A stretch of 64,000 nucleotides of DNA from contig CALRBR010000001.1 of assembly GCA_943354385.1 (NCBI GenBank), positions 2,942 to 66,941 on the forward strand, written 5' to 3'. This DNA is from Candidatus Tayloriibacteriota bacterium (GTDB taxonomy: Bacteria; Patescibacteriota; Minisyncoccia; Phycocordibacterales; PALSA-1337). Under the pieces are notes generated by a model. The model had not been told where the DNA came from, ran no database searches, and was given only the letters and a program-made list of their open reading frames with translations. Both the position numbers and the translations under genes were made by a program. Shown here piece by piece: positions 4,535 through 63,001 of the stretch (within the stretch, counting starts at the first letter, position 1; every line of letters starts with the position of its first letter).

Positions 4535-4796
4535 TCTACTGAGACGTTTATAAAAAGTGACCTTGTTGAGCTATATTTGGCTATAGCCCCAGTCGTAAAA
4601 GGTGGACTTGGCTGTTTTAAATCGGGGATTTTTCTGTTTATCTATTGATACAAGAATGGAGAGTACAACATAATCATACTAATAATGATGAGTACACAGA
4701 TAATAATAGAAACGACATTGAGTACTTTCTTGGTTTTTTGGTGGAATAACATGGATATTTTTTTGGTATTATTGTAATAGATTCTAGTATATAATA

Positions 4797-4922
4797 TAGG
4801 ACTTACGCAATCGGCGCACTTCTTCGTTATTTCGGTCGTTTGCTCCCGTAACGTATTGTTATACGTTTTGGTCGCAAGCCTCGCTCGCGCCTCGAATTGC
4901 ATCCAATTACGTAAGTCCTATA
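4797..4922. other. 126-nt nested inverted-repeat structure (candidate structured RNA or attenuator)
   Basis: Outer arms are tataggacttacg...cgtaagtcctata. Second-level arms are gcaatcggcgc/gcgcctcgaattgc. There is an inner hairpin acgtattgttatacgt. Confidence 0.4.
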
Positions 4923-4932
4923 ATAACACATT

Positions 4933-5304
4933 ATGCTCGAATTTCAAGTTAAAAAACGAGTCAAAAAGATTCTCTATTCACGGGCGATGTTTGTGGTGCT
5001 AATTGTTCTCGTGGCGCTGGCTGGTCGGGCGACTTGGGGGGTGTATCAGAAAGAGAAGATTAGTCAGCTCAATCTGGATAGATTACAAGCAGAGATCACT
5101 GAGCTCAAAGGACGTGAAGAGTATATTACGTCTGGTATCGATCGTCTGGGCACAGACCGAGGAATTGAAGAGGAGATCCGGCAAAAATTTAAGGTGGTAA
5201 AAGATGGTGAGGTGATGGCTATTTTGATGGATGACGAAATGGCTATTACTGCTTCCTCGACTGAAAAAGGTTTTTGGTCTACAGTCGTTGATGTGTTTAG
5301 GTAA
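4933..5304 (+). CDS. septum formation initiator family protein (FtsB/DivIC-like)
   Basis: N-terminal TM helix, coiled-coil segment (LNLDRLQAEITELKGREEYI) and a C-terminal IEEEIRQKFKVVKDGEVMAIL motif resembling FtsB. Confidence 0.55.
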   Translation: MLEFQVKKRVKKILYSRAMFVVLIVLVALAGRATWGVYQKEKISQLNLDRLQAEITELKGREEYITSGIDRLGTDRGIEEEIRQKFKVVKDGEVMAILMDDEMAITASSTEKGFWSTVVDVFR

Positions 5305-5425: not shown

Positions 5426-5602
5426 CAAAATGAGCGTAGCGATTTTTAAGAGTAGCTGGAATCGGACCGGAAAGGGGTCGGGAAAAATGGCGTTTTCCCG
5501 TGGAGGAAGGATTGGGAGAACCTCGGCCCATCGGTAGATGATGTGCACCTGTAGACGGGGTTCCCCAGGCGTTCGATAATGAAATGTCCCGCCACTAGCA
5601 CA
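5426..5602 (+). repeat. tRNA-trailer composite element A (conserved core GGAAAGGGGTCGGG plus a hairpin plus GTGGAGGAA); ends in a 16-nt duplicate of the tRNA-Gly 3' end
   Basis: The core is shared with copies at 8718-8790, 13534-13613, 51896-51975(-) and 61240-61400(-). tcccgccactagcaca at 5587-5602 matches tcccgccactcgcaca at 5412-5427. Confidence 0.7.
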
Positions 5603-8669: not shown

Positions 8670-8943
8670 CAGCATAAAAAGTATTTTTTGTGCTGTGCGA
8701 ATGGTCGGAATTGAACCGGAAAGGGGTCGGGAAAACAGGCGTTTTCCCGTGGAGGAAAACAACGAGTATTGGAGTGTTAGAAACCGTGGGCTGTACACCG
8801 AATGCTTGGAGGTGTACAGAGACGGAGACTGTCGAGTCGAGTCCGGGTCGGGGACATTTTTAGTAAAAAATGATTCCTGACTCGTAAGAGCCCTGAGTGA
8901 AGCGATGGGCGAGTTCAATAGCGAAGCGTCCGGCCGGGAGCAC
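8670..8943 (+). repeat. tRNA-trailer composite element B; bounded by a 15-nt duplicate of the tRNA-Arg 3' end
   Basis: It starts with an inverted copy of the tRNA T-arm (TCGGAATTGAACCGG). The conserved core is at 8718-8790. tccggccgggagcac at 8929-8943 equals 8656-8670. Confidence 0.7.
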
Positions 8944-8965
8944 CCAATTGTGTATTGTATTTCTT

Positions 8966-13485: not shown

Positions 13486-13620
13486 CAGAAACGAACGCAG
13501 TGAGTCTGTGATAAGATCTAGGTTCGAACGTTGGAAAGGGGTCGGGAAAACCCTAGTTTTCCCGTGGAGGAAAACAACGAGTACTCGAGTGTTAGAAACC
13601 GTTGGTTTCTAAAGCATAGA
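13486..13620 (+). repeat. tRNA-trailer composite element C (core 13534-13613)
   Basis: ggaaaggggtcgggaaaaccctagttttcccgtggaggaaaacaacgagtactcgagtgttagaaaccgttggtttctaaag. A degenerate tRNA 3'-end-like stretch is at 13664-13690. Confidence 0.7.
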
Positions 13621-13622
13621 TA

Positions 13623-13658
13623 CTAAAAAGAAAAGGCTATGTAGCCTTTTCTTTTTAG
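13623..13658. terminator. bidirectional terminator hairpin between tRNA-Phe(+) and hsp20(-)
   Basis: ctaaaaagaaaaggctat/gtagccttttctttttag perfect inverted repeat flanked by A/T runs on both sides. Confidence 0.7.
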
Positions 13659-13697
13659 TATTGAGCAGTTCGATCTTGTTTTGGCGCCCGGTTTACC

Positions 13698-14156
13698 CTA
13701 CAAATTCGACTTCACCCGCACCTTTGTCTGTCTCCCCTTATCCACTTTAGTAAGTTTTAAAATAAGCAGCCCGTGCTTTTCTACAGCCTCGGCCGTGTCT
13801 ATTTCAACCTCCTGAGGTAGTGTAATAGTTCTAGAAAATGATCCCCAATAAAGCTCACGATAAAAGAAATCCTCATCTTTGACACTTCGCTCCTCCTCAC
13901 GCTTGCCACGAATAGTCACCATATCTCTGGTGATAGAAATATCAAGGTCTTCTGGACGTACTCCAGCGACCATCGTTTTTAATATGATTTTGTCAGCTGT
14001 CTGGTGTACATCTACAGTGAGTTCCCCCTCTTTTTCCTCCTCTAGCCAGTTGCCAGTTTGATTCTCAACTGCTATTTCAACCGCATCAGCAGTGTCCTCA
14101 TCGAGTCTGATGGTACCTGTTAATCTTTCAAAAAAAGATTTTTTTGTTTTTGACAT
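13698..14156 (-). CDS. Hsp20/alpha-crystallin family small heat-shock protein
   Basis: 152 aa. The alpha-crystallin domain fits: ELTVDVHQT...ILKTMVAGVRPEDLDISI...WGSFSRTITLPQEVEIDTAEAV. Confidence 0.8.
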   Translation of the reverse strand: MSKTKKSFFERLTGTIRLDEDTADAVEIAVENQTGNWLEEEKEGELTVDVHQTADKIILKTMVAGVRPEDLDISITRDMVTIRGKREEERSVKDEDFFYRELYWGSFSRTITLPQEVEIDTAEAVEKHGLLILKLTKVDKGRQTKVRVKSNL

Positions 14157-51486: not shown

Positions 51487-51527
51487 GTGGTGAGATGGAT
51501 ATGCTCTACCAGCTGAGCTATGGGCGC
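51487..51527 (-). pseudogene. tRNA 5' fragment (acceptor plus D-arm only)
   Basis: The reverse complement is GCGCCCATAGCTCAGCTGGTAGAGCA followed by a non-tRNA sequence. No anticodon or T arm is present. Confidence 0.4.
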
Positions 51528-51751
51528 ATAAAATAAGCTAGAGAATATAGCAGGTTTTACAAGAATTGGCAATCTAGCTGGGTGTAACTTTTCGGTTCTT
51601 GGAGGCGGGAAGTTCGAAACTTACAGTTTCAGTACCCCGATTGGATTTTTTCTTCATGTTTCGCAATTGAAAAAACGCTCAATCGGGCTTCGATTCCCAC
51701 CGAAAGCGTCCCCACGCTTTCTCCCGAGTACAATATCACTGCGTTCGTCTG

Positions 51752-51859: not shown

Positions 51860-52024
51860 GAGGCTTAAGGCGGGTATCTCACTCGGAGCAAAGCTCCTCT
51901 TTAGAAACCCACGGTTTCTAACACTCGAGTACTCGTTGTTTTCCTCCACGGGGAACTCCCGTTCCCCGACCCCCTCCCACGGTTCGAGACCGGCCTAGGG
52001 GCGGTAAACCGAACGGTTTACTTG
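51860..52024 (-). repeat. tRNA-trailer composite element D (3' of tRNA-Cys on the - strand); its core hairpin carries a compensatory change
   Basis: On the - strand: GGGGGTCGGGGAACgggaGTTCCCCGTGGAGGAAAACAACGAGTACTCGAGTGTTAGAAACCGTGGGTTTCTAAAG. A terminator-like hairpin gtaaaccgttcggtttac lies right after the tRNA-Cys. Confidence 0.7.
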
Positions 52025-56853: not shown

Positions 56854-59532
56854 ATGCCTCCATTCAATCATTTTACAACTAAAGCCAAAGAAGCCATCAG
56901 ACGAGCTCATGAGCTTGCCATAGAACGTGGCCAAAATCATGTCAGTCCGATGCACCTCCTTCTTTCCCTTATCTTACAGGAAGAAAGTATGGTCAACTCT
57001 ATCCTCGAAAAGCTCGAAGTGGATACTATCTTGTTGACAGACTCTATTCTTGAGACTATCGAAGCACCCCAGACTTCACAGACAGTTTCGCAATCATACC
57101 AGATATTTCTCACCCCTGACTTAGCTCAGATTATTGAGAACGCAAGCAAGGTGGCAGCAACCCTAAAGGATGAGTTTATCTCTACTGAACATCTCTTTAT
57201 ATCTATTTTTGACGTGGCTGGTGCGACACGTGATTTGGTGGGTAAATTTAAAATTGACCGCTCAGCTATCATTCGTGTAATCGATGAGCTCAAAACAAGT
57301 AAGGTGGCCGAAGTAGTACATCCAAAAAAGTTTCGAACACTTTCAAAGTATGCTAGAAGTCTCACCAAGCTTGCCAAGGAAAATAAACTCGATCCAGTCA
57401 TAGGTCGGGACAATGAAATTCTTCGTATCATTCAAATACTTTCTCGTCGTACTAAAAATAATCCGATATTAATCGGTGAAGCTGGCGTGGGAAAAACCGC
57501 TATTGTCGAGGGGCTAGCAATCCGTATCGCTATGGGTGACGTACCCGAGTCTCTCAAAGACAAGGAGCTCGTGTCACTCGATCTAGGCTCACTTATTGCG
57601 GGTACTAAATATCGCGGAGAATTTGAGGAGCGTCTCAAGAACATTTTGAAAGAAATCGAAAAATCGGACGGTAAGATTATTCTTTTTATTGATGAGATTC
57701 ACACTCTTGTCGGTGCAGGAGCTTCTGAGGGTTCAATGGATGCGTCAAATATGCTAAAGCCAGCACTCGCTAGGGGTGAGCTCCGTGCTATCGGTGCGAC
57801 CACTCTCAAAGAATATCAGAAACATATTGAAAAAGACCCTGCACTTACTCGCCGTTTTCAGCCGGTCTATGTCAACGAACCGTCACTTGAGGATGCCACT
57901 GCTATTTTGCGAGGGCTGAAAGAAAAATACGAACTATTCCACGGCGTGCATATTACCGACGACGCTATTTTGTCAGCGGTCAATCTAAGTAGTCGATATA
58001 TCACGGATCGATTTTTACCTGATAAAACAGTAGACCTTATTGATGAGGCGTCTTCGGCATTAAAAATATCTCTTGAAAATATGCCTCCTGTACTCGAAGA
58101 AACTCGCCGAAAAGTATTGCGTCTTGAGATAGAGCGAGAGTCTCTCAAAAAGGAAACAGGTAAGGTGGCAAAAGCACGCACAGCAAAAATAGACAAAGAA
58201 ATCGCCGATCACAAAGAACAGACCAGCGAGCTTGAGCTAAAATGGAAAAATGAAAAGGCGACAATTGCTGAAATAAAAGATATCAAAAAAGAATTAGAAA
58301 AACTACGTCTGGAGGCTGAGTCTGCTGAAGCGCACGTAGATCTAGCAAAAGCAGCGGAAATACGGTATGGCAAAATTCCCGCACTCGAAAAGGATCTCGA
58401 TTTAAAAGCCAAGCGCCTCAAAAAACTTCAGAGCTCTCGTCGTATCCTCAAAGAGGAAATCAACGAGCAAGATATTGCTGATGTTGTATCTCGCTGGACA
58501 GGTATTCCAGTATCCCGAATGCTCGAGGAGGAGGCGGTCAAGCTCACTCGCATGGAAGAGGATTTGAAAAAGCGTATCGTTGGTCAAAATGAAGCGGTCA
58601 AAAAGATCGCCGATACCATCAAACGTTCCCGGGCAGGTATTGCAGATCCCAATCGGCCGATCGGCTCGTTTATGTTTCTTGGTCCGACTGGTGTGGGTAA
58701 AACTGAACTTACGAAAGCTCTCGCTGAGTTCCTTTTCAATGATGAAAAATCACTTGTACGTATAGATATGTCTGAATATATGGAAAAGCATTCGGTTTCA
58801 AAGCTCGTCGGTGCGCCTCCAGGTTATGTTGGACACGATGAGGGTGGAGGACTCACAGAGATTGTACGACATCGACCGTACTCAGTGATTCTCTTTGATG
58901 AAATAGAAAAGGCACATCCAGAGGTGTTTAACATACTTTTACAGGTGCTCGATAACGGCCGATTGACTGATGCAAAGGGGCGAGTGGTAAACTTTAAAAA
59001 CAGTGTCATAATCATGACCTCAAATATCGGTGCCCAGTATATTCAAAGAATGGAAAAAATGGGTTTTGGCCATAGTAATGACGAAAAGAAAAATTATGAT
59101 GATGTAAAGACAAAGGTGACGAACAATCTCAAGGATTATTTCCGTCCAGAGTTTTTAAACCGTATTGATGACATTATTATCTTTGATATTCTTTCTCCTC
59201 ACGCGGTGGCAGATATCGTAAAGATTCAGGTGGAACTGGTAAAAGAACGTCTTGCCCTAAAAGAGATTTCGCTTGAGGTGACGCCAGAAGTCTTGGCGTA
59301 TCTTGCAAAAGAAGGATATGATCCCCAGTACGGTGCCCGACCACTCAAGCGACTCATACAAAATAAAATACTGACTCCAGTCGCATCTCTCATGGTTTCT
59401 CGTGGAGTGATGCAGGGAGGAACTATCGCAGTGACCCTCAAGGGTGAAGAATTTATGTTTGAGGTAAAAAAAGTAAAAAAGAATGGTAGGGAAGTGAGGG
59501 TTTTTGAGAGTAAGGAAACGGTGAGAGCATAA
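56854..59532 (+). CDS. clpB: ATP-dependent chaperone ClpB
   Basis: Clp_N repeats. Two AAA+ modules ([15 protein letters not shown]; [15 protein letters not shown]) separated by a long coiled-coil M-domain. C-terminal ClpB_D2-small domain. Confidence 0.9.
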
Positions 59533-59580
59533 AAGTGGAATTTAGCTAAAAAGTGTGCTATTTTAGTATGGTGCACTTTT

Positions 59581-59665
59581 GCGCCGGTCGAATAGCGGCC
59601 ATTTCAGGAGACTGTAAATCTCCCGCCTTCGGGCATCGTCGGTTCGAGTCCGACCCGGCGCACCA
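59581..59665 (+). tRNA. tRNA-Tyr(GTA), type II, encoded CCA
   Basis: GCGCCGG acceptor. Anticodon stem-loop GGAGA-CTGTAAA-TCTCC. Long variable arm CCGCCTTCGGGC. T-arm GTCGG-TTCGAGT-CCGAC. Then ACCA. Confidence 0.85.
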
Positions 59666-59667
59666 AA

Positions 59668-59693
59668 TAAAAAAACACCCTAAGGTGTTTTTT
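59668..59693 (+). terminator. rho-independent terminator after tRNA-Tyr
   Basis: aaaaaaacaccc-taa-ggtgttttttt. Confidence 0.75.
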
Positions 59694-59697
59694 TATT

Positions 59698-59849
59698 TGC
59701 GCCCGGAGAAACTGCTGGGGAGCAGTTTTGTGTTGGGCTTGAAGCCTCGCTGAGTACTTTTTTGAGTGTACTCATGAAGAAAAAGTCCAGCGACGGGGAC
59801 TGAAACTGTAAGTTTCGAGAAATGTAATCATGGTCCGACCCGGCACCCA
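59698..59849 (+). repeat. tRNA-trailer element F; bounded by a 17-nt near-duplicate of the tRNA-Tyr 3' end
   Basis: gtccgacccggcaccca at 59833-59849 matches gtccgacccggcgcacca at 59648-59665. The module GAAGCCTCGCTGAGTACTTTTTTGAGTGTACTCATGAAGAAAAAGTCCAGCGA (59739-59795) is shared with element E. Confidence 0.7.
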
Positions 59850-59892
59850 GTATTTTATTTTTCTTTCCCCGTGCTATAGTAATCTCATCTTT

Positions 59893-60732
59893 ATGAAAAC
59901 AAATTACTGCTATCTGAACGGAAAAATACTGCCAGTCCAAGACGCTATGGTTTCAGTGTACGATATCGGATTGCTTCGAGGATATGGTATCTATGAAGGT
60001 ATTACTACTTATAAAAACAAGCCATTTCGGCTTGCGGATCATCTGGCACGTTTCCGTTCGTCCGCAAAGGAACTCGATCTCGCGATTCCATCTTCTGATG
60101 AGGAAATAGAAAAAGCAGTCCTATCCTTGGTTGAAAAAAACGGTTTCGAGAGGACAAATTTACGTGTAATTCTCACTGGCGGAAACACAATTGCTGGGAT
60201 TGAGTTTGATGCAGATAAACCAACTTTCTATATTCTTGCAGAGGAGTATAAATCATTACCGAGTGAGATGTATGCTTCCGGTGCATCTCTCATTACTCAC
60301 GAGCACCAGCGAGCCTTACCAGAATACAAGACGATAAATTACATCACTGCAGTACAGGTACAGAATGAACGAAAGGCAAAAGGTGCTATTGAAGTGCTCT
60401 ATGTTTCAAACGGTAAAGTTCTTGAGGCTGCGACAAGTAATATTTTTATAGTAAAAGACGGTGTGGTAATTACGCCTAAAAATAATGTATTGGCTGGCAT
60501 TACTCGTAATGTGGTGATTGAAGTTGCTCAGAAAAAATATAAAGTGATTGAAAGGGAAGTGACCATCACTGATCTTTTGTATGCCGACGAAGTTTTTCTA
60601 ACGGCGAGTTATAAAGAAATCGTTCCAATAGTAGAGATTGACGGTAAAAGGATTGCTCAAGGAAGTGTCGGCAAGGTGACGCTGGTACTGATGAAAGATT
60701 TTCAAGAATATACCGAAAAAGGTGACTGGTAG
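59893..60732 (+). CDS. class IV aminotransferase (branched-chain / D-amino-acid aminotransferase family)
   Basis: LRGYGIYEGI, ERTNLRVILTGG, ATSNIFIVKDGVVITP and VLAGITR are class IV AT hallmarks. The start is moved to ATG 59893 (MKTNYCYL). Confidence 0.8.
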   Translation: MKTNYCYLNGKILPVQDAMVSVYDIGLLRGYGIYEGITTYKNKPFRLADHLARFRSSAKELDLAIPSSDEEIEKAVLSLVEKNGFERTNLRVILTGGNTIAGIEFDADKPTFYILAEEYKSLPSEMYASGASLITHEHQRALPEYKTINYITAVQVQNERKAKGAIEVLYVSNGKVLEAATSNIFIVKDGVVITPKNNVLAGITRNVVIEVAQKKYKVIEREVTITDLLYADEVFLTASYKEIVPIVEIDGKRIAQGSVGKVTLVLMKDFQEYTEKGDW

Positions 60733-60788
60733 GCAGAACAGTTGATTTTTCTAACTATATGCGGTAGACTATACCGACAAATAAATTT

Positions 60789-60953
60789 ATGTCACAAGAC
60801 CGACTATTAAGACTAAAGTGTAAGGATTGCAAGGAGGCAAACTATTACACCTCAAAAAATAAGAAACTCGTTGAGCGAAAAATCGAGCTCAAGAAGTTTT
60901 GTAAAACATGTAAGAAGACAACGATGCACAAGGAAGCGAAGATTACGGGGTAG
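60789..60953 (+). CDS. rpmG: ribosomal protein bL33 (54 aa; below the ORF-track length cutoff)
   Basis: Translated by hand: MSQDRLLRLKCKDCKEANYYTSKNKKLVERKIELKKFCKTCKKTTMHKEAKITG. The YxTxKNK...ELKKF...H.EAKI pattern matches L33. A terminator follows. Confidence 0.7.
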   Translation: MSQDRLLRLKCKDCKEANYYTSKNKKLVERKIELKKFCKTCKKTTMHKEAKITG

Positions 60954-60970
60954 GGAGGGGAGACGATTAC

Positions 60971-60997
60971 AAAAAAACCGCCTAGGCGGTTTTTTTG
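60971..60997 (+). terminator. rho-independent terminator after rpmG
   Basis: aaaaaaaccgcc-ta-ggcggttttttt. Confidence 0.8.
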
Positions 60998-60999
60998 TT

Positions 61000-61435
61000 G
61001 TCTTATAAATATGAATGCGGGCCCACCTAGACTCCTGGGGAACCCACGGTTGATAGTCCGCTGAGTACCATCCTTACAGGAGCTGTACACCTTTCGCTCT
61101 CTTTGGAGTACAAAGCGCTCAAGGTCTTGCGAAGCTCCAGGTATTCGCTTCTCACCTTACATGAGTAGTATCCATCGCTGGACTTTTTCTTCGCGAGTAC
61201 ACTTAAAAAAGTACTCAGCGAGGCTTCGAGTCTCAGACACCTCGTAAACCCACGGTTTTCCGACGCTCGTCGGGCTCGCTGCCTTCCTCCACGGGAAAAC
61301 GCCATCTTCCTTACAGGAACTGTACACCTTTCGCTTTTTGAATACAAAATACTCAAGGTCTTGCGAAAGTGTCCCACACTTTCTCACCCGACCCCTTTCC
61401 ATGTCTCATCGTCCATTTGTTCGCTTCGCTCTCTG
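61000..61435 (-). repeat. tRNA-trailer composite element E (3' of tRNA-Trp on the - strand), with an interrupted core and two ~62-nt internal direct repeats
   Basis: On the - strand: GGAAAGGGGTCGGG (61386-61399 on +) ... inserted unit ... GGCGTTTTCCCGTGGAGGAAGG. Units are at 61062-61124 and 61301-61360. The module shared with element F is at 61184-61240. tgcgggccc at 61016-61024 duplicates the tRNA-Trp 3' end. Confidence 0.7.
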
Positions 61436-61507
61436 CGGGCCCGCTGAGACTCGAACTCAGAACTTCAGTTTTGGAGACCGATGTTTTACCATTGAAACTA
61501 CAGGCCC
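61436..61507 (-). tRNA. tRNA-Trp(CCA)
   Basis: The reverse complement is GGGCCTGTAGTTTCAATGGTAAAACATCGGTCTCCAAAACTGAAGTTCTGAGTTCGAGTCTCAGCGGGCCCG. Anticodon loop CTCCAAA. T-arm CTGAG-TTCGAGT-CTCAG. Confidence 0.85.
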
Positions 61508-61723
61508 AGTAGGGCAATCATAGCATGTATTTGCTCTGTATCACAAGGGATATTTTACTAAATGGCTCATTAGAAGCCTATTTTGAGTAAATAAGGGAGC
61601 TGTCCTTGACTTTATAATTCAAGTATGCTATATTTAGGTTTGACAACACAGGGTCGGAGGATCCTGATTTTTGTTGGCTCATTGTCAGTTCATGTCGGTA
61701 AACGTTGTTTGAAGAAAAAGCCT

Positions 61724-61939
61724 ATGAAAAAATCGCTGTTGGCGCTGGGAACCATTGTGTTCCTGGCAATAATCGTTCTGATCGCCCGAAAGCATCAGAC
61801 GAAGCCACCCATCGCACTGGCCCAGCCCGCAAAGATTGCGGTCGGCAAGGGCGAATACATGCGGCCGCAGCGGACGAATTCCGTCCCGGCTCAAAACGGT
61901 CCGGTGGAGATTCACTCCAAGGTGCGCGTCACGCAGTAA
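61724..61939 (+). CDS. hypothetical small membrane-anchored protein (island 2)
   Basis: Start at MKKSLLALGTIVFLAIIVLIA (TM helix). 71 aa. GC-rich codon usage unlike its neighbours. Confidence 0.35.
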   Translation: MKKSLLALGTIVFLAIIVLIARKHQTKPPIALAQPAKIAVGKGEYMRPQRTNSVPAQNGPVEIHSKVRVTQ

Positions 61940-61996
61940 AAATGTCGGTAAAAGAAATAAACACAGAAACTCGGGAAAACAAAAAGAACTCAGAAA

Positions 61997-63001
61997 ATGA
62001 AAGCAAAACTCCTTGCAGTCCTCACACTGCTCAGTCTCATAACGGTCACTGCCTTCGCGCAGAACGACTTCACCATGATCACCTCGCCGGCCGCATTGCG
62101 GTCTTACGCCTACAGTCAGGTGGCTCGTGGGCAGGTCAGCATTGGCTCGCAGAGCATGTTGAACGGCAGTAAGAACTACGTCAACACCGAACCCCTCTCT
62201 GGAGGGGCCACGGTGGTGATGGACAGTCTGAACTCCCTCGCGGAGTTCAAATACTCGGTGGCGGATGTTCGCGACCCGGTCGGCTACTACGGTTATCTCA
62301 TGAATGAAGAGTGGGACACGCTGTTTAGTGGTGGCCAGCAAGGCAACTTTCAGTTTGACAAGGGACAGGGCCGGTGGGTTGTCCCTCCGGAACTGGAAAA
62401 CCTTAAACTCTCAACGATGGTCTCGCAAGTGCCTATCAAGGTGAAAGGAGTTCTCTCTGCTCGTGTCATTGTTCGCGATGCGAAGGGTAACGTCATCCGT
62501 GACGATTATCTGAATGTGCGGAATGAGAAGGTTTACTATCCTGAGGGTTATACCGAAAGGACTGGGGAAATCATTCTCACTAAGCGCGGTGCTGATGGTT
62601 CAGTCGTTGACGAGGTTTACGACCTCAAGACTGGCCAGCAGAACACGCCGACGTCGGTCTCAAGTCGGGCTTATGTCTCGATTGAAGGAGTGTTGAACTT
62701 TTACAACTCCTCGGTCATGCTGAATCAGCAGCCGAAAGACACATTGTCGATACTCACCGTCACGGTGGAGTCGATGATTGCTGCATTTTCGGCAACTGCT
62801 CCTGGCGGTGAAACTCCTCGAGCCGTGTTGATTCGCAAGTCTGATGGCCAGCGATGGTATCGTCAGGCTATCGAGATTGGCAACATCACCTGCATCAAGA
62901 TCCCTGCCGGCGAATGGCACGTGATCTTCGAATGGATCACGGATGAATATCGGGAACTGCCCATCGTCGAACACTGGGATTACGATGGTGGTCGGGGTTA
63001 A
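61997..63001 (+). CDS. hypothetical secreted protein (island 2)
   Basis: Signal peptide MKAKLLAVLTLLSLITVTAFAQ. 334 aa, beta-rich composition. No motif was recognised. Confidence 0.5.
   Translation: MKAKLLAVLTLLSLITVTAFAQNDFTMITSPAALRSYAYSQVARGQVSIGSQSMLNGSKNYVNTEPLSGGATVVMDSLNSLAEFKYSVADVRDPVGYYGYLMNEEWDTLFSGGQQGNFQFDKGQGRWVVPPELENLKLSTMVSQVPIKVKGVLSARVIVRDAKGNVIRDDYLNVRNEKVYYPEGYTERTGEIILTKRGADGSVVDEVYDLKTGQQNTPTSVSSRAYVSIEGVLNFYNSSVMLNQQPKDTLSILTVTVESMIAAFSATAPGGETPRAVLIRKSDGQRWYRQAIEIGNITCIKIPAGEWHVIFEWITDEYRELPIVEHWDYDGGRG

Follow-up and report, generated by a model that had tools for sequence, protein, structure and literature searches.

Small protein-less structured elements with target-derived arms, centred on the tRNA T-loop, are layered behind a patescibacterial tRNA-Trp gene

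The described systems closest to the elements reported here are the tyrosine-recombinase islands at tRNA T-loops together with their derivatives devoid of genes, the cis-mobilizable elements (CIMEs), and streptococcal integrative and conjugative elements (ICE) and integrative and mobilizable elements (IME) also target rpsI at its 3′ end and conserved genes at their 5′ ends. Repetitive extragenic palindromes (REP) and bacterial interspersed mosaic elements (BIME) are structured, non-autonomous repeats and are moved by a single-copy enzyme such as RAYT. Group II introns are reported to be absent from Patescibacteria, and the group I introns in patescibacterial tRNA genes are located in the anticodon loop, match the Rfam group I model and are mostly devoid of protein genes (PMC13011429). 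This study deals with the 3′ trailer of a tRNA-Trp gene in a stretch of 64,000 nucleotides (nt) of contig CALRBR010000001.1 of a Candidatus Tayloriibacteriota bacterium; the whole stretch is referred to as the window. The main result is the element families themselves, which are protein-less and structured, centred on the T-loop and equipped with arms derived from their target. The trailer is on balance best read as the outcome of at least four insertions from three protein-less structured families of approximately 80 to 150 nt, which would be non-autonomous mini-elements of the Campbell type that fold as single strands. These families, designated type A, type B and M1, appear to be new to the literature. 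No description of any of them was found in keyword and sequence literature searches, and Patescibacteria are not mentioned in a literature survey of MITEs (miniature inverted-repeat transposable elements).

The tRNA-Trp gene (anticodon CCA, 61435–61507, minus strand) was identified with ARAGORN and by the Rfam tRNA model (58.9 bits) and is one of ten tRNA genes in the window. Its 3′ trailer covers 61000–61434 and the element pile-up therein 61016–61434 (approximately 420 nt); all parts are located on the minus strand and are described in the order in which they follow the tRNA. The native-type 3′ tail (AGAGAGCGAAGCGAACAAAT, 61415–61434) with its GCGAAGC mini-hairpin aligns with the tail behind the tRNA in two related metagenome loci, the empty site L128 and L129. 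It is followed by a decayed type A segment complementary to the tRNA (GGACGATGAGACAT, 61401–61414), here termed anti, in which about 9 of 12 positions equal the reverse complement of T-stem and acceptor strand; at this position, intact type A copies carry 10–26 nt of reverse complement of their tRNA. The linker GGAAA and the type A core's 5′ half (GGGGTCGGG, 61387–61400) were assigned by sequence reading and from the family pattern. M1a (61310–61386), a 77-nt insertion missing from the L129 orthologue, is nested within hairpin 1 of type A, in its loop between GGG and AA. Behind it, the 3′ half of hairpin 1 with the remainder of the core (CCCGTGGAGGAA, 61284–61309) leads into the variable hairpin CAGCGAGCCCGACGAGCG and hairpin 2 CGGAAAACCGTGGGTTTACGAG (61241–61283), the latter showing covariation. 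The type B anti segment (TCTGAGACTCGAA, 61225–61237) is the reverse complement of TTCGAGTCTCAG of the tRNA-Trp plus one further base and corresponds in position to GGTGGGAATCGAA in the tRNA-Leu trailer. The type B core (61155–61224), found by repeat search as a module common to the tRNA-Tyr and tRNA-Leu trailers, is missing from L129, as is the second M1 copy, M1b (61073–61154, 82 nt), which is inserted after ...TGTAAGG and is present in a third locus, L127. The pile-up closes with a spacer that includes a remnant of the 3′ half of type A hairpin 2 (61035–61072; remnant AACCGTGGGTTCCCCAG at 61035–61051), part of a 23-nt imperfect direct repeat with 61231–61253, and with a T-loop-like element end joined to a degenerate second tRNA-Trp 3′ end (GAGTCTAGGTGGGCCCGCA, 61016–61034). 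The latter matches 61434–61452 at 16 of 19 positions (84%, repeat search) and is better kept in L129 (GAGTCTTAGCGGGCCCGCAG).

Assignment of the Trp copy to type A is based on both core halves and on a hairpin 2 with the AAACC-GWG-GGUUU top, with the core split by M1a into GGAAAGGGGTCGGG (61387–61400) and GTTTTCCCGTGGAGGAA (within 61284–61309). The target-derived arms are present in decayed form, as given above; the anti segment is plain to see at tRNA-Gly, tRNA-Arg and tRNA-Phe. R1, a covariance model of type A built from 22 copies, matches the Trp copy at 61212–61314 (34.5 bits, E = 3e-8) with model positions 26–113 only, in keeping with the split of the core by M1a. The nhmmer E-values for M1a (1.7e-22) and M1b (2.1e-20) are partly circular, the M1 profile being made from four copies including both of the window, and the same applies to the type B core (E = 2e-19), as the Trp copy was included in its profile.

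An earlier reading of the same DNA from its letters alone (the sequence-only reading) had noted direct repeats of about 62 nt, a conserved core split by an inserted unit and a module common to the tRNA-Trp and tRNA-Tyr trailers. A repeat search recovered both the repeats (61071–61098 versus 61308–61335, 28 nt, 96%; 61102–61133 versus 61336–61367, 32 nt, 84%) and the type B match. The full repeat units are M1a and M1b with the boundaries given above, which agree in 64 of 85 aligned columns (approximately 75%). The core is indeed interrupted: M1a lies between its halves, and the orthologous element of L129 reads GGAAAGGGGTCGGGAAAACACCTGTTTTCCCGTGAAGGAAGG throughout, with no such insert. That the unit of about 80 nt is an insert is borne out by orthologous sites with and without it, not only in the window and L129 but also in L096 and L094. 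The module common to tRNA-Trp and tRNA-Tyr has slightly shifted boundaries (61155–61237); 61156–61239 is 81% complementary over 84 nt to 59729–59812 on the plus strand, which gives the two modules one and the same orientation with respect to their own tRNAs, and the two type B copies are identical in 57 of 66 aligned columns (approximately 86%).

The same module family is thus located behind different tRNAs. The sequence-only reading took this for module exchange between trailers and for a mobile, actively recombining family. The families are insertion-type repeats, as supposed, but the sharing reflects separate insertions of type B members rather than a swap, since the anti segment of each is specific to the tRNA it follows (Trp, TCTGAGACTCGAA; Leu, GGTGGGAATCGAA). 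Active recombination is not supported either, as the M1 and type B copies have diverged to the extent given above and the Trp anti segment and tRNA-end copy are decayed. The Trp region is accordingly an old, layered insertion site and not evidence for ongoing exchange. Two features had escaped that reading: every trailer holds the reverse complement of the T-loop and 3′ half of its own tRNA, and every trailer is closed by a second tRNA 3′-end copy.

A metagenome scan aimed at the 3′ half of the tRNA-Trp returned three loci (L127, L128 and L129), in which different states of the site are found. In L128 the site is empty: the tRNA-Trp is followed directly by the native tail and then by the promoter of the next genes. 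L129 carries a simple type A element only, devoid of M1 and type B, in which hairpin 1 reads GGGTCGGGAAAACACCTGTTTTCCCG at the position of M1a in the window. The full pile-up is present in the close relative L127, a metagenome contig of another study (OFRL01005143), in the same order as in the window (type A with M1a, type B, M1b), except that approximately 130 nt were lost between two GTAA microhomologies (compared to window 60950–61075). The lost stretch held the remnant of type A, the downstream copy of the tRNA end, the terminator and the stop codon of the L33 gene; with the stop codon deleted, the L33 reading frame of L127 continues into the antisense strand of M1b. The idiosyncratic variable hairpin CAGCGAGCCCGACGAGCG is identical in the window, L129 and L127. 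Taken together, the empty, type A-only and full states show that the Trp trailer grew by successive insertions. The trailer is still being remodelled, and type A was already in place here before the window and L129 diverged from their common ancestor.

Relative to an element of the L129 kind, the block of type B and M1b is located between ...TTTCCGAGGAG and TCT.AG... and is flanked by the 23-nt imperfect repeat; its insertion point is the T-loop-like junction of the type A element itself. In the proposed history, type A would have been inserted first. M1 would have entered the loop of type A hairpin 1 and type B would have been added onto the type A 3′ T-loop-like junction in later events, in either order, and M1b might have been brought along by type B or received afterwards.

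Type A is a widespread family. Its copies were fetched with the exact 21-base core pattern from 8-kb loci, the host genomes being mostly metagenome bins. Four matches to this pattern are found in the window versus none expected, which excludes chance, and R1 identifies five type A copies. At least 118 loci in species-representative genomes carry the pattern, almost all of them in Patescibacteria of the Parcubacteria/Paceibacteria kind. Sixty-two copies are located 23–107 nt behind a tRNA gene on the same strand, covering 17 isotypes. A few protein-gene sites recur as well: type A directly follows rpsI in five genomes (L009, L048, L051, L058, L104) and lies antisense to a glycosyltransferase gene and to a murD-like gene at their 5′ ends. 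Syntenic copies between tRNA-Thr(GGT) and tRNA-Thr(CGT) occur in at least four genomes. When the 600 nt behind every tRNA gene of the window were read, type A was found behind Gly, Arg, Phe, Cys and Trp, and type B behind Leu, Tyr and Trp; seven of the ten tRNA genes have a trailer element, while those for Glu, Ser and Val have none.

The elements, 100–420 nt in size, contain no open reading frame (ORF), and nothing in their surroundings recurs that could be assigned to their movement. When the 543 ORFs located up to 1.2 kb away from 121 copies were all compared with one another, only syntenic housekeeping genes recurred, and no integrase-like ORF was recognized when the first 60 or so residues of 54 main window ORFs were read by eye, with no domain search. 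A scan of viral contigs (IMG/VR) with the core pattern gave only seven identical chance matches, all at a ribosome-binding site of one high-GC phage, and a phage or plasmid origin was therefore dismissed. At the gathering score, Rfam 15 recognizes only tRNAs in the whole window; permissive scans of four regions brought up nothing beyond tRNAs, with matches no better than chance in the trailers of Trp, Gly and Tyr, and an intact copy had none at E ≤ 5. None of the three types of element thus corresponds to an Rfam family.

Five loci (L013, L032, L037, L040 at approximately 4760–5080, and L108) hold the core of type A inside a larger conserved stretch of about 300 nt that resembles an RNA and has the sequence GUCUCCC-hairpin-GGGAGUACCCGUAAAAAG ... 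GGAGCAAAUCUCAUUUGCGACGG ..., for which Rfam has no match. An identity with RNase P or signal recognition particle RNA was considered for the core and for this long form and is without Rfam support. The five loci share no neighbouring gene. The long form may be a stand-alone RNA gene and the source of the small elements.

The anatomy of type A was drawn from 121 copies. The gene end, composed of a T-loop side (L) and a part that starts near position 60 and reaches the 3′ end (R), is followed by a tail, often a terminator or a GCGAAGC-type mini-hairpin, by the anti segment, which spans the L/R boundary and is the reverse complement of L and R over up to 26 nt, and by a GRAR linker. The core consists of GGGGUCGGG, hairpin 1 and CCCGUGGAGGAA (in the window GGAAAGGGGTCGGG-hairpin-CCCGTGGAGGAA), followed by an optional variable hairpin and by hairpin 2. 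A copy of the T-loop, GUUCGAU or the variant GUGAGAU (L′), then leads into a second copy of R and tail. The variant GUGAGAU pairs with the anti-T-loop by Watson-Crick and tandem G.A pairs. The second tRNA copy reaches from the T-loop to the discriminator base and is often mutated. The purine-rich joining strands are invariant, as are 21 core bases, an invariance partly imposed by the search with the exact pattern.

Where the arms come from is apparent from the copies at different genes. The anti segments 5′ of the core differ with the tRNA, e.g. GGAATCGGACC at Gly with its unusual loop TCCGATT, CGGAATTGAACCG at Arg and GGTGGGAATCGAA at Leu. Scored by exact matches, the direct repeat of 32 copies out of 49 begins 15–17 nt short of the end of the tRNA, corresponding to T-loop position 58–60 or so, and the duplication is variable in length (12–58 nt). 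Pairing of anti with its own downstream copy is stronger than in mismatched controls (−22.3 versus −17.9 kcal/mol, p = 1e-12) and usually strongest with its own upstream functional gene end (−29.2 kcal/mol), and T-loop, anti and what lies between them make up a single long, imperfect palindrome (median 77% identity, 36-nt arms). At rpsI, both the functional end and the pseudo-copy encode (P)QWSKR-stop with different synonymous codons (e.g. Ser AGT/AGC versus TCG/TCA); in L009, anti matches the functional copy at 20 of 20 positions. L058 and L104 have the same 1-nt insertion in the displaced rpsI pseudo-copy.

Both type A hairpins covary, with 93.8% of cells paired and nine pairs changed on both sides, a level reached in none of 500 shuffles. 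G.U pairs prevail in the sense over the antisense strand (12 versus 2 and 29 versus 5), the sense strand folds better (hairpin 1, 36 versus 10 cases; hairpin 2, 70 versus 5), and G.T exceeds A.C among palindrome-arm mismatches (130 versus 78, p = 4e-4). Covariation and strand bias together indicate that a single-stranded form in the tRNA sense, either RNA or single-stranded DNA (ssDNA), is under selection. Copies within one genome have subtype-specific hairpins in common and different arms, which reflects either intragenomic spread or gene conversion.

Some further details of type A copies were observed. A recurring tail motif behind tRNA genes, AGAGAACGAAGTGAG or GAGCGAAGCGA, can form the GCGAAGC-type mini-hairpin (61415–61434 on the minus strand, 5427–5449 and 13487–13507); it is present even at the empty site of L128, and its enrichment in the window is modest (23 versus 13 expected). 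In many copies of type A, the second tRNA-end copy is preceded, right at the junction, by the 9-nt sequence AGCGAAGCG. The Arg copy contains a nested module in the loop of hairpin 2 (8791–8819) after AACCGTGGG, starting with the hairpin CTGTACACC...GGTGTACAG, and L028, L045 and L114 have a different insert (CGAC...GAAGTACTCYTGTGGTG) at that very position of the loop.

Type A and type B follow one plan: the intact gene end from the T-loop to the tRNA 3′ end with a tail or terminator, its inverted copy (anti), a core of conserved hairpins, L′ and a second, direct gene-end copy beginning near tRNA position 58–60. In type B, an anti segment that ends in ...CGAA is followed by the trinucleotide GCC, by a stem with covariation (UCGCUG/CAGCGA or CGAUUG/CAAUCG), by GAAGAAAAA and by a hairpin whose loop is UGUAA. 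The Trp copy (61155–61237) shows this organization, its 3′ UGUAA-loop hairpin being disrupted by M1b. Further copies are located at tRNA-Tyr (59699–59819, plus strand, identified with nhmmer, with a decayed copy of the tRNA-Tyr 3′ end at 59833–59849), at tRNA-Leu and in L042, L101 and L115. Behind the type B element of tRNA-Leu, a truncated tRNA 5′ half (GCGCCCATAGCTCAGCTGGTAGAGCATATCC, 51497–51527, minus strand) was observed. Type B contains AUGAAGA and, about 20 nt further on, CUGA (59746–59808 in the Tyr copy), resembling box C and box D; a box C/D identity was rejected as a probable chance resemblance, the match to an archaeal C/D-box small RNA being non-significant (E = 0.33).

M1 represents a small element of its own. 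Support independent of the profile copies comes from matches in three loci outside the profile (L021, L031, L042), and L096 carries M1 at a tRNA-Ile site whose orthologue in L094 is free of it. In all contexts, M1 is joined between GG or GGG and AA. It was also found within a tRNA-Gly pseudo-copy and, in antisense orientation, in the T-loop of a tRNA 3′ pseudo-copy.

A Campbell-type insertion is the mechanism favoured here for type A and B. The mobile unit would comprise the replacement gene end R, the tail, anti, the core and L′. A crossover within the T-loop between L and R, comparable to attP x attB, would leave the tRNA intact and push the old 3′ end downstream, and recombination between the two direct copies would remove the unit again and leave an empty site like that of L128. 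Anti and the gene-end copy (L′-R) could close the core into a long stem, so that the unit might form a single-stranded dumbbell of RNA or ssDNA, on which a putative trans-acting enzyme or the recombination or replication machinery of the host would act. Such a dumbbell in the free unit would explain both the strand-specific pairing and the fixed place of anti beside the core. A replacement gene end is favoured because the rpsI copies differ in synonymous codons and anti matches the functional copy in L009; a plain target-site duplication is weakened by the same codon differences. Three other candidates were set aside. A T-loop intron does not agree with an intact upstream and a mutated downstream tRNA copy. 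A primer-binding site of the retroviral kind, with anti copied from the mature tRNA, is contradicted by anti segments that never include a complement of CCA and, in L084, enter the genomic tail. A mimic of the acceptor stem, processed like a tRNA, is not supported either, as the outer end of the stem varies from before position 72 to within the tail.

Several points weigh against this mechanism. No recombinase, transposase or reverse transcriptase was found, and no circular or excised form was seen. Orthologous copies are retained in distant Paceibacteria, at rpsI in five genomes and at the tRNA-Thr pair in at least four, which together with the 21 invariant core bases would fit a host function as well. 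A classical integrase would not explain one core for approximately 20 targets, and the model offers no explanation of how anti and gene-end copy are re-matched to a new target. The codon pattern at rpsI could stem from later allelic exchange between element-carrying lineages. Nowhere was a fresh insertion observed. As type A at Trp is old and decayed, L128 may be empty either because the element was lost or because this lineage never acquired it. Moreover, no replacement copy but only GTG is located between L′ and anti in the Trp type B element, so the unit is not always built alike.

The retention of orthologues and a core unchanged over so deep a lineage also make for a serious, though rather unlikely, alternative, namely that type A and B are RNAs in the service of the host, used at the 3′ ends of transcripts of tRNA and some protein genes. 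They might act as a processing, stabilizing or insulating signal or as a cis antisense to the T-arm that guides processing or modification; the gene-end copy and its complement would merely supply the closing stem, and spread would be slow, by ordinary recombination. A core invariant across a class-level group, covarying hairpins with a strand bias suited to RNA, syntenic copies in several distant genomes and elements at seven of ten tRNA genes in the window of a streamlined genome are all compatible with this. The same holds for the Trp trailer, which is probably co-transcribed with its tRNA, as no terminator-like hairpin precedes 60998: the first one downstream of the tRNA-Trp, judged by eye with no terminator scan, is a bidirectional terminator hairpin at 60969–60998 that the L33 gene shares with the transcription unit of the tRNA-Trp and that has perfect arms of 15 nt between runs of A and T. 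On the other hand, many copies are located beyond a strong terminator directly after the tRNA (Tyr, L007, L084), some are antisense at the 5′ ends of protein genes, and the near relative L128 lacks the element with no visible replacement. Copies also decay, as seen for the Trp anti segment and tRNA-end copy, and are interrupted by other modules, and a closing stem has no need of the sequence of its neighbour.

The specificity of anti for its tRNA speaks for a further alternative, a guide-directed insertion, which is regarded as improbable. Anti, alone or with the gene-end copy, would pair with one target strand or both and guide an enzyme encoded elsewhere to cut and join at the T-loop. In a more detailed form of this idea, to be held with equal doubt, type A and B would be guide cassettes, with a three-way-junction scaffold, a guide of 10–26 nt and an effector encoded once per genome, the gene being restored upon insertion; anti and the same-sense target copy would address the two strands of a chosen site, and practically every tRNA gene could receive the unit at its T-loop. 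Anti follows even unusual T-loops (Gly, TCCGATT/AATCGGA; Arg, TTCAATT/AATTGAA), spans the junction with its 10–26 nt and is located at a short, roughly constant distance upstream of the core. A single core family serves 17 isotypes and non-tRNA sites, and copies of one genome combine hairpins of the same subtype with different arms, although gene conversion could account for this sharing. RNA-guided systems with a Nop domain are known in parasitic bacteria (PMC12045711), which counts in favour of a guide. No candidate effector is encoded near any copy, however, and anti is paired in the folded element, unlike the guides of bridge RNAs, which are displayed in loops. Furthermore, the intact tRNA at a filled site still matches the guide, so that filled and empty sites could not be distinguished, and re-programming would demand a joint change of two segments.

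Very unlikely is a passive origin as a by-product of replication or repair, in which fold-back at the tail mini-hairpin or terminator and template switches at T-loop microhomologies would generate the arms with no dedicated enzyme, and existing cores would be copied from one tRNA locus to another. Long palindromes with a GCGNAGC mini-hairpin or the loop of a terminator at their centre (28-nt arms at Gly of the window, 36 nt in L084), junctions within sequence common to all tRNAs, the resemblance of non-tRNA targets to the core's own GGGGTNGGGG in anti orientation and the L127 deletion between GTAA microhomologies are in line with it. Such a process would, however, require three ordered template switches per event and leaves the conserved core with its compensatory changes as well as the simple insertions of M1 between GGG and AA unexplained. 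Finally, an assembly artefact, i.e. collapse or expansion of the repeats at 61.0–61.4 kb, is scarcely credible: two 75%-identical repeats are present and one short-read contig stops within M1a, but the M1 copies, with one position in four different, are readily told apart, and the order recurs in two further assemblies, L127 and the separately assembled Logan contig L126 (run ERR5863101, which may also have supplied reads for the window; 100% identity to 59146–61380, 2,235 nt), which takes in M1b and the type B module and breaks off within M1a after covering most of it.

Other trailer elements of the window are located at 5427–5601, 8671–8945, 13487–13700, 59666–59849 and, on the minus strand, at 51860–52023 and 51595–51750. 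Upstream of the tRNA-Trp, a gene cluster at 61625–63001 with elevated G+C content (0.53 versus 0.43) encodes small, secreted-looking proteins. It is divergent from the tRNA-Trp in the window and located downstream on the same strand in L128 and L129; the tRNA-Trp with its trailer is thus inverted relative to the cluster.

Patescibacterial genomes are very small, yet seven of ten tRNA genes in 64 kb carry structured elements. If these are selfish, a gene-less element of 120 nt occupies essential genes harmlessly by bringing a spare gene end, and the inverted target copy hints at an undescribed mechanism of targeting or copying. If they serve the host, they would represent a major unannotated class of RNA tied to tRNA expression. 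Either way, annotation is affected by pseudo-tRNA ends and false ORFs, contigs break at the elements during assembly, and the elements are markers of strain history.

Among known systems, the IS110 bridge RNAs and the tandem interspersed guide RNA (TIGR) systems resemble the elements in having a structured non-coding part with target-matching sequence and segments able to pair with both strands. They differ in that no recombinase or Nop-domain gene is adjacent here, that no Rfam or sequence similarity exists and that the guide-like segments comprise 10–26 nt and are paired with each other in predicted folds, instead of 4–10 nt in internal loops. A derivation from IS200/IS605 (palindrome-associated transposable elements (PATE), omega RNA), which insert 3′ of a constant motif of 4–5 nt and leave no duplication, does not agree with the long duplications, and neither an Rfam match nor a TnpB- or IscB-like ORF was found nearby. 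With R2, which uses a ribozyme similar to that of hepatitis delta virus (HDV) and inserts into 28S rDNA, the elements share a probable co-transcription with a host RNA gene, a closing helix made from the target and one conserved position; they differ by the missing reverse transcriptase and by the anti segment of L084, which enters a genomic tail devoid of CCA.

The group I introns of Patescibacteria have the same group of hosts and are likewise small RNA elements in or at tRNA genes. The elements described here are instead located behind an intact and complete tRNA, have no Rfam match and need no splicing, as it is the downstream copy that is decayed. REP/BIME and MITEs are comparable in being short, protein-less and multicopy, forming single-strand hairpins, occurring at gene 3′ ends and being nested, with the enzyme encoded elsewhere. 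Their inverted repeats are fixed, whereas the arms here are copies of the local target that vary from copy to copy; the duplication of 12–58 nt, where MITEs have a short one of constant length, the synonymous differences between the rpsI copies and the preference for one tRNA position set the elements apart from MITEs in particular.

Compared to the T-loop islands and CIMEs, the elements are far simpler in content: they comprise only 100–150 nt with no integrase, and no ORF other than those of syntenic housekeeping genes recurs within 1.2 kb of 121 copies. They also differ by one core for approximately 20 targets, by an inverted target copy beside the core and by a covarying, strand-specific structure. 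As in the T-loop islands, the direct repeats extend from the T-loop to or past the tRNA 3′ end, the tRNA is kept intact, probably by a replacement end, and loss would proceed by recombination between the repeats.

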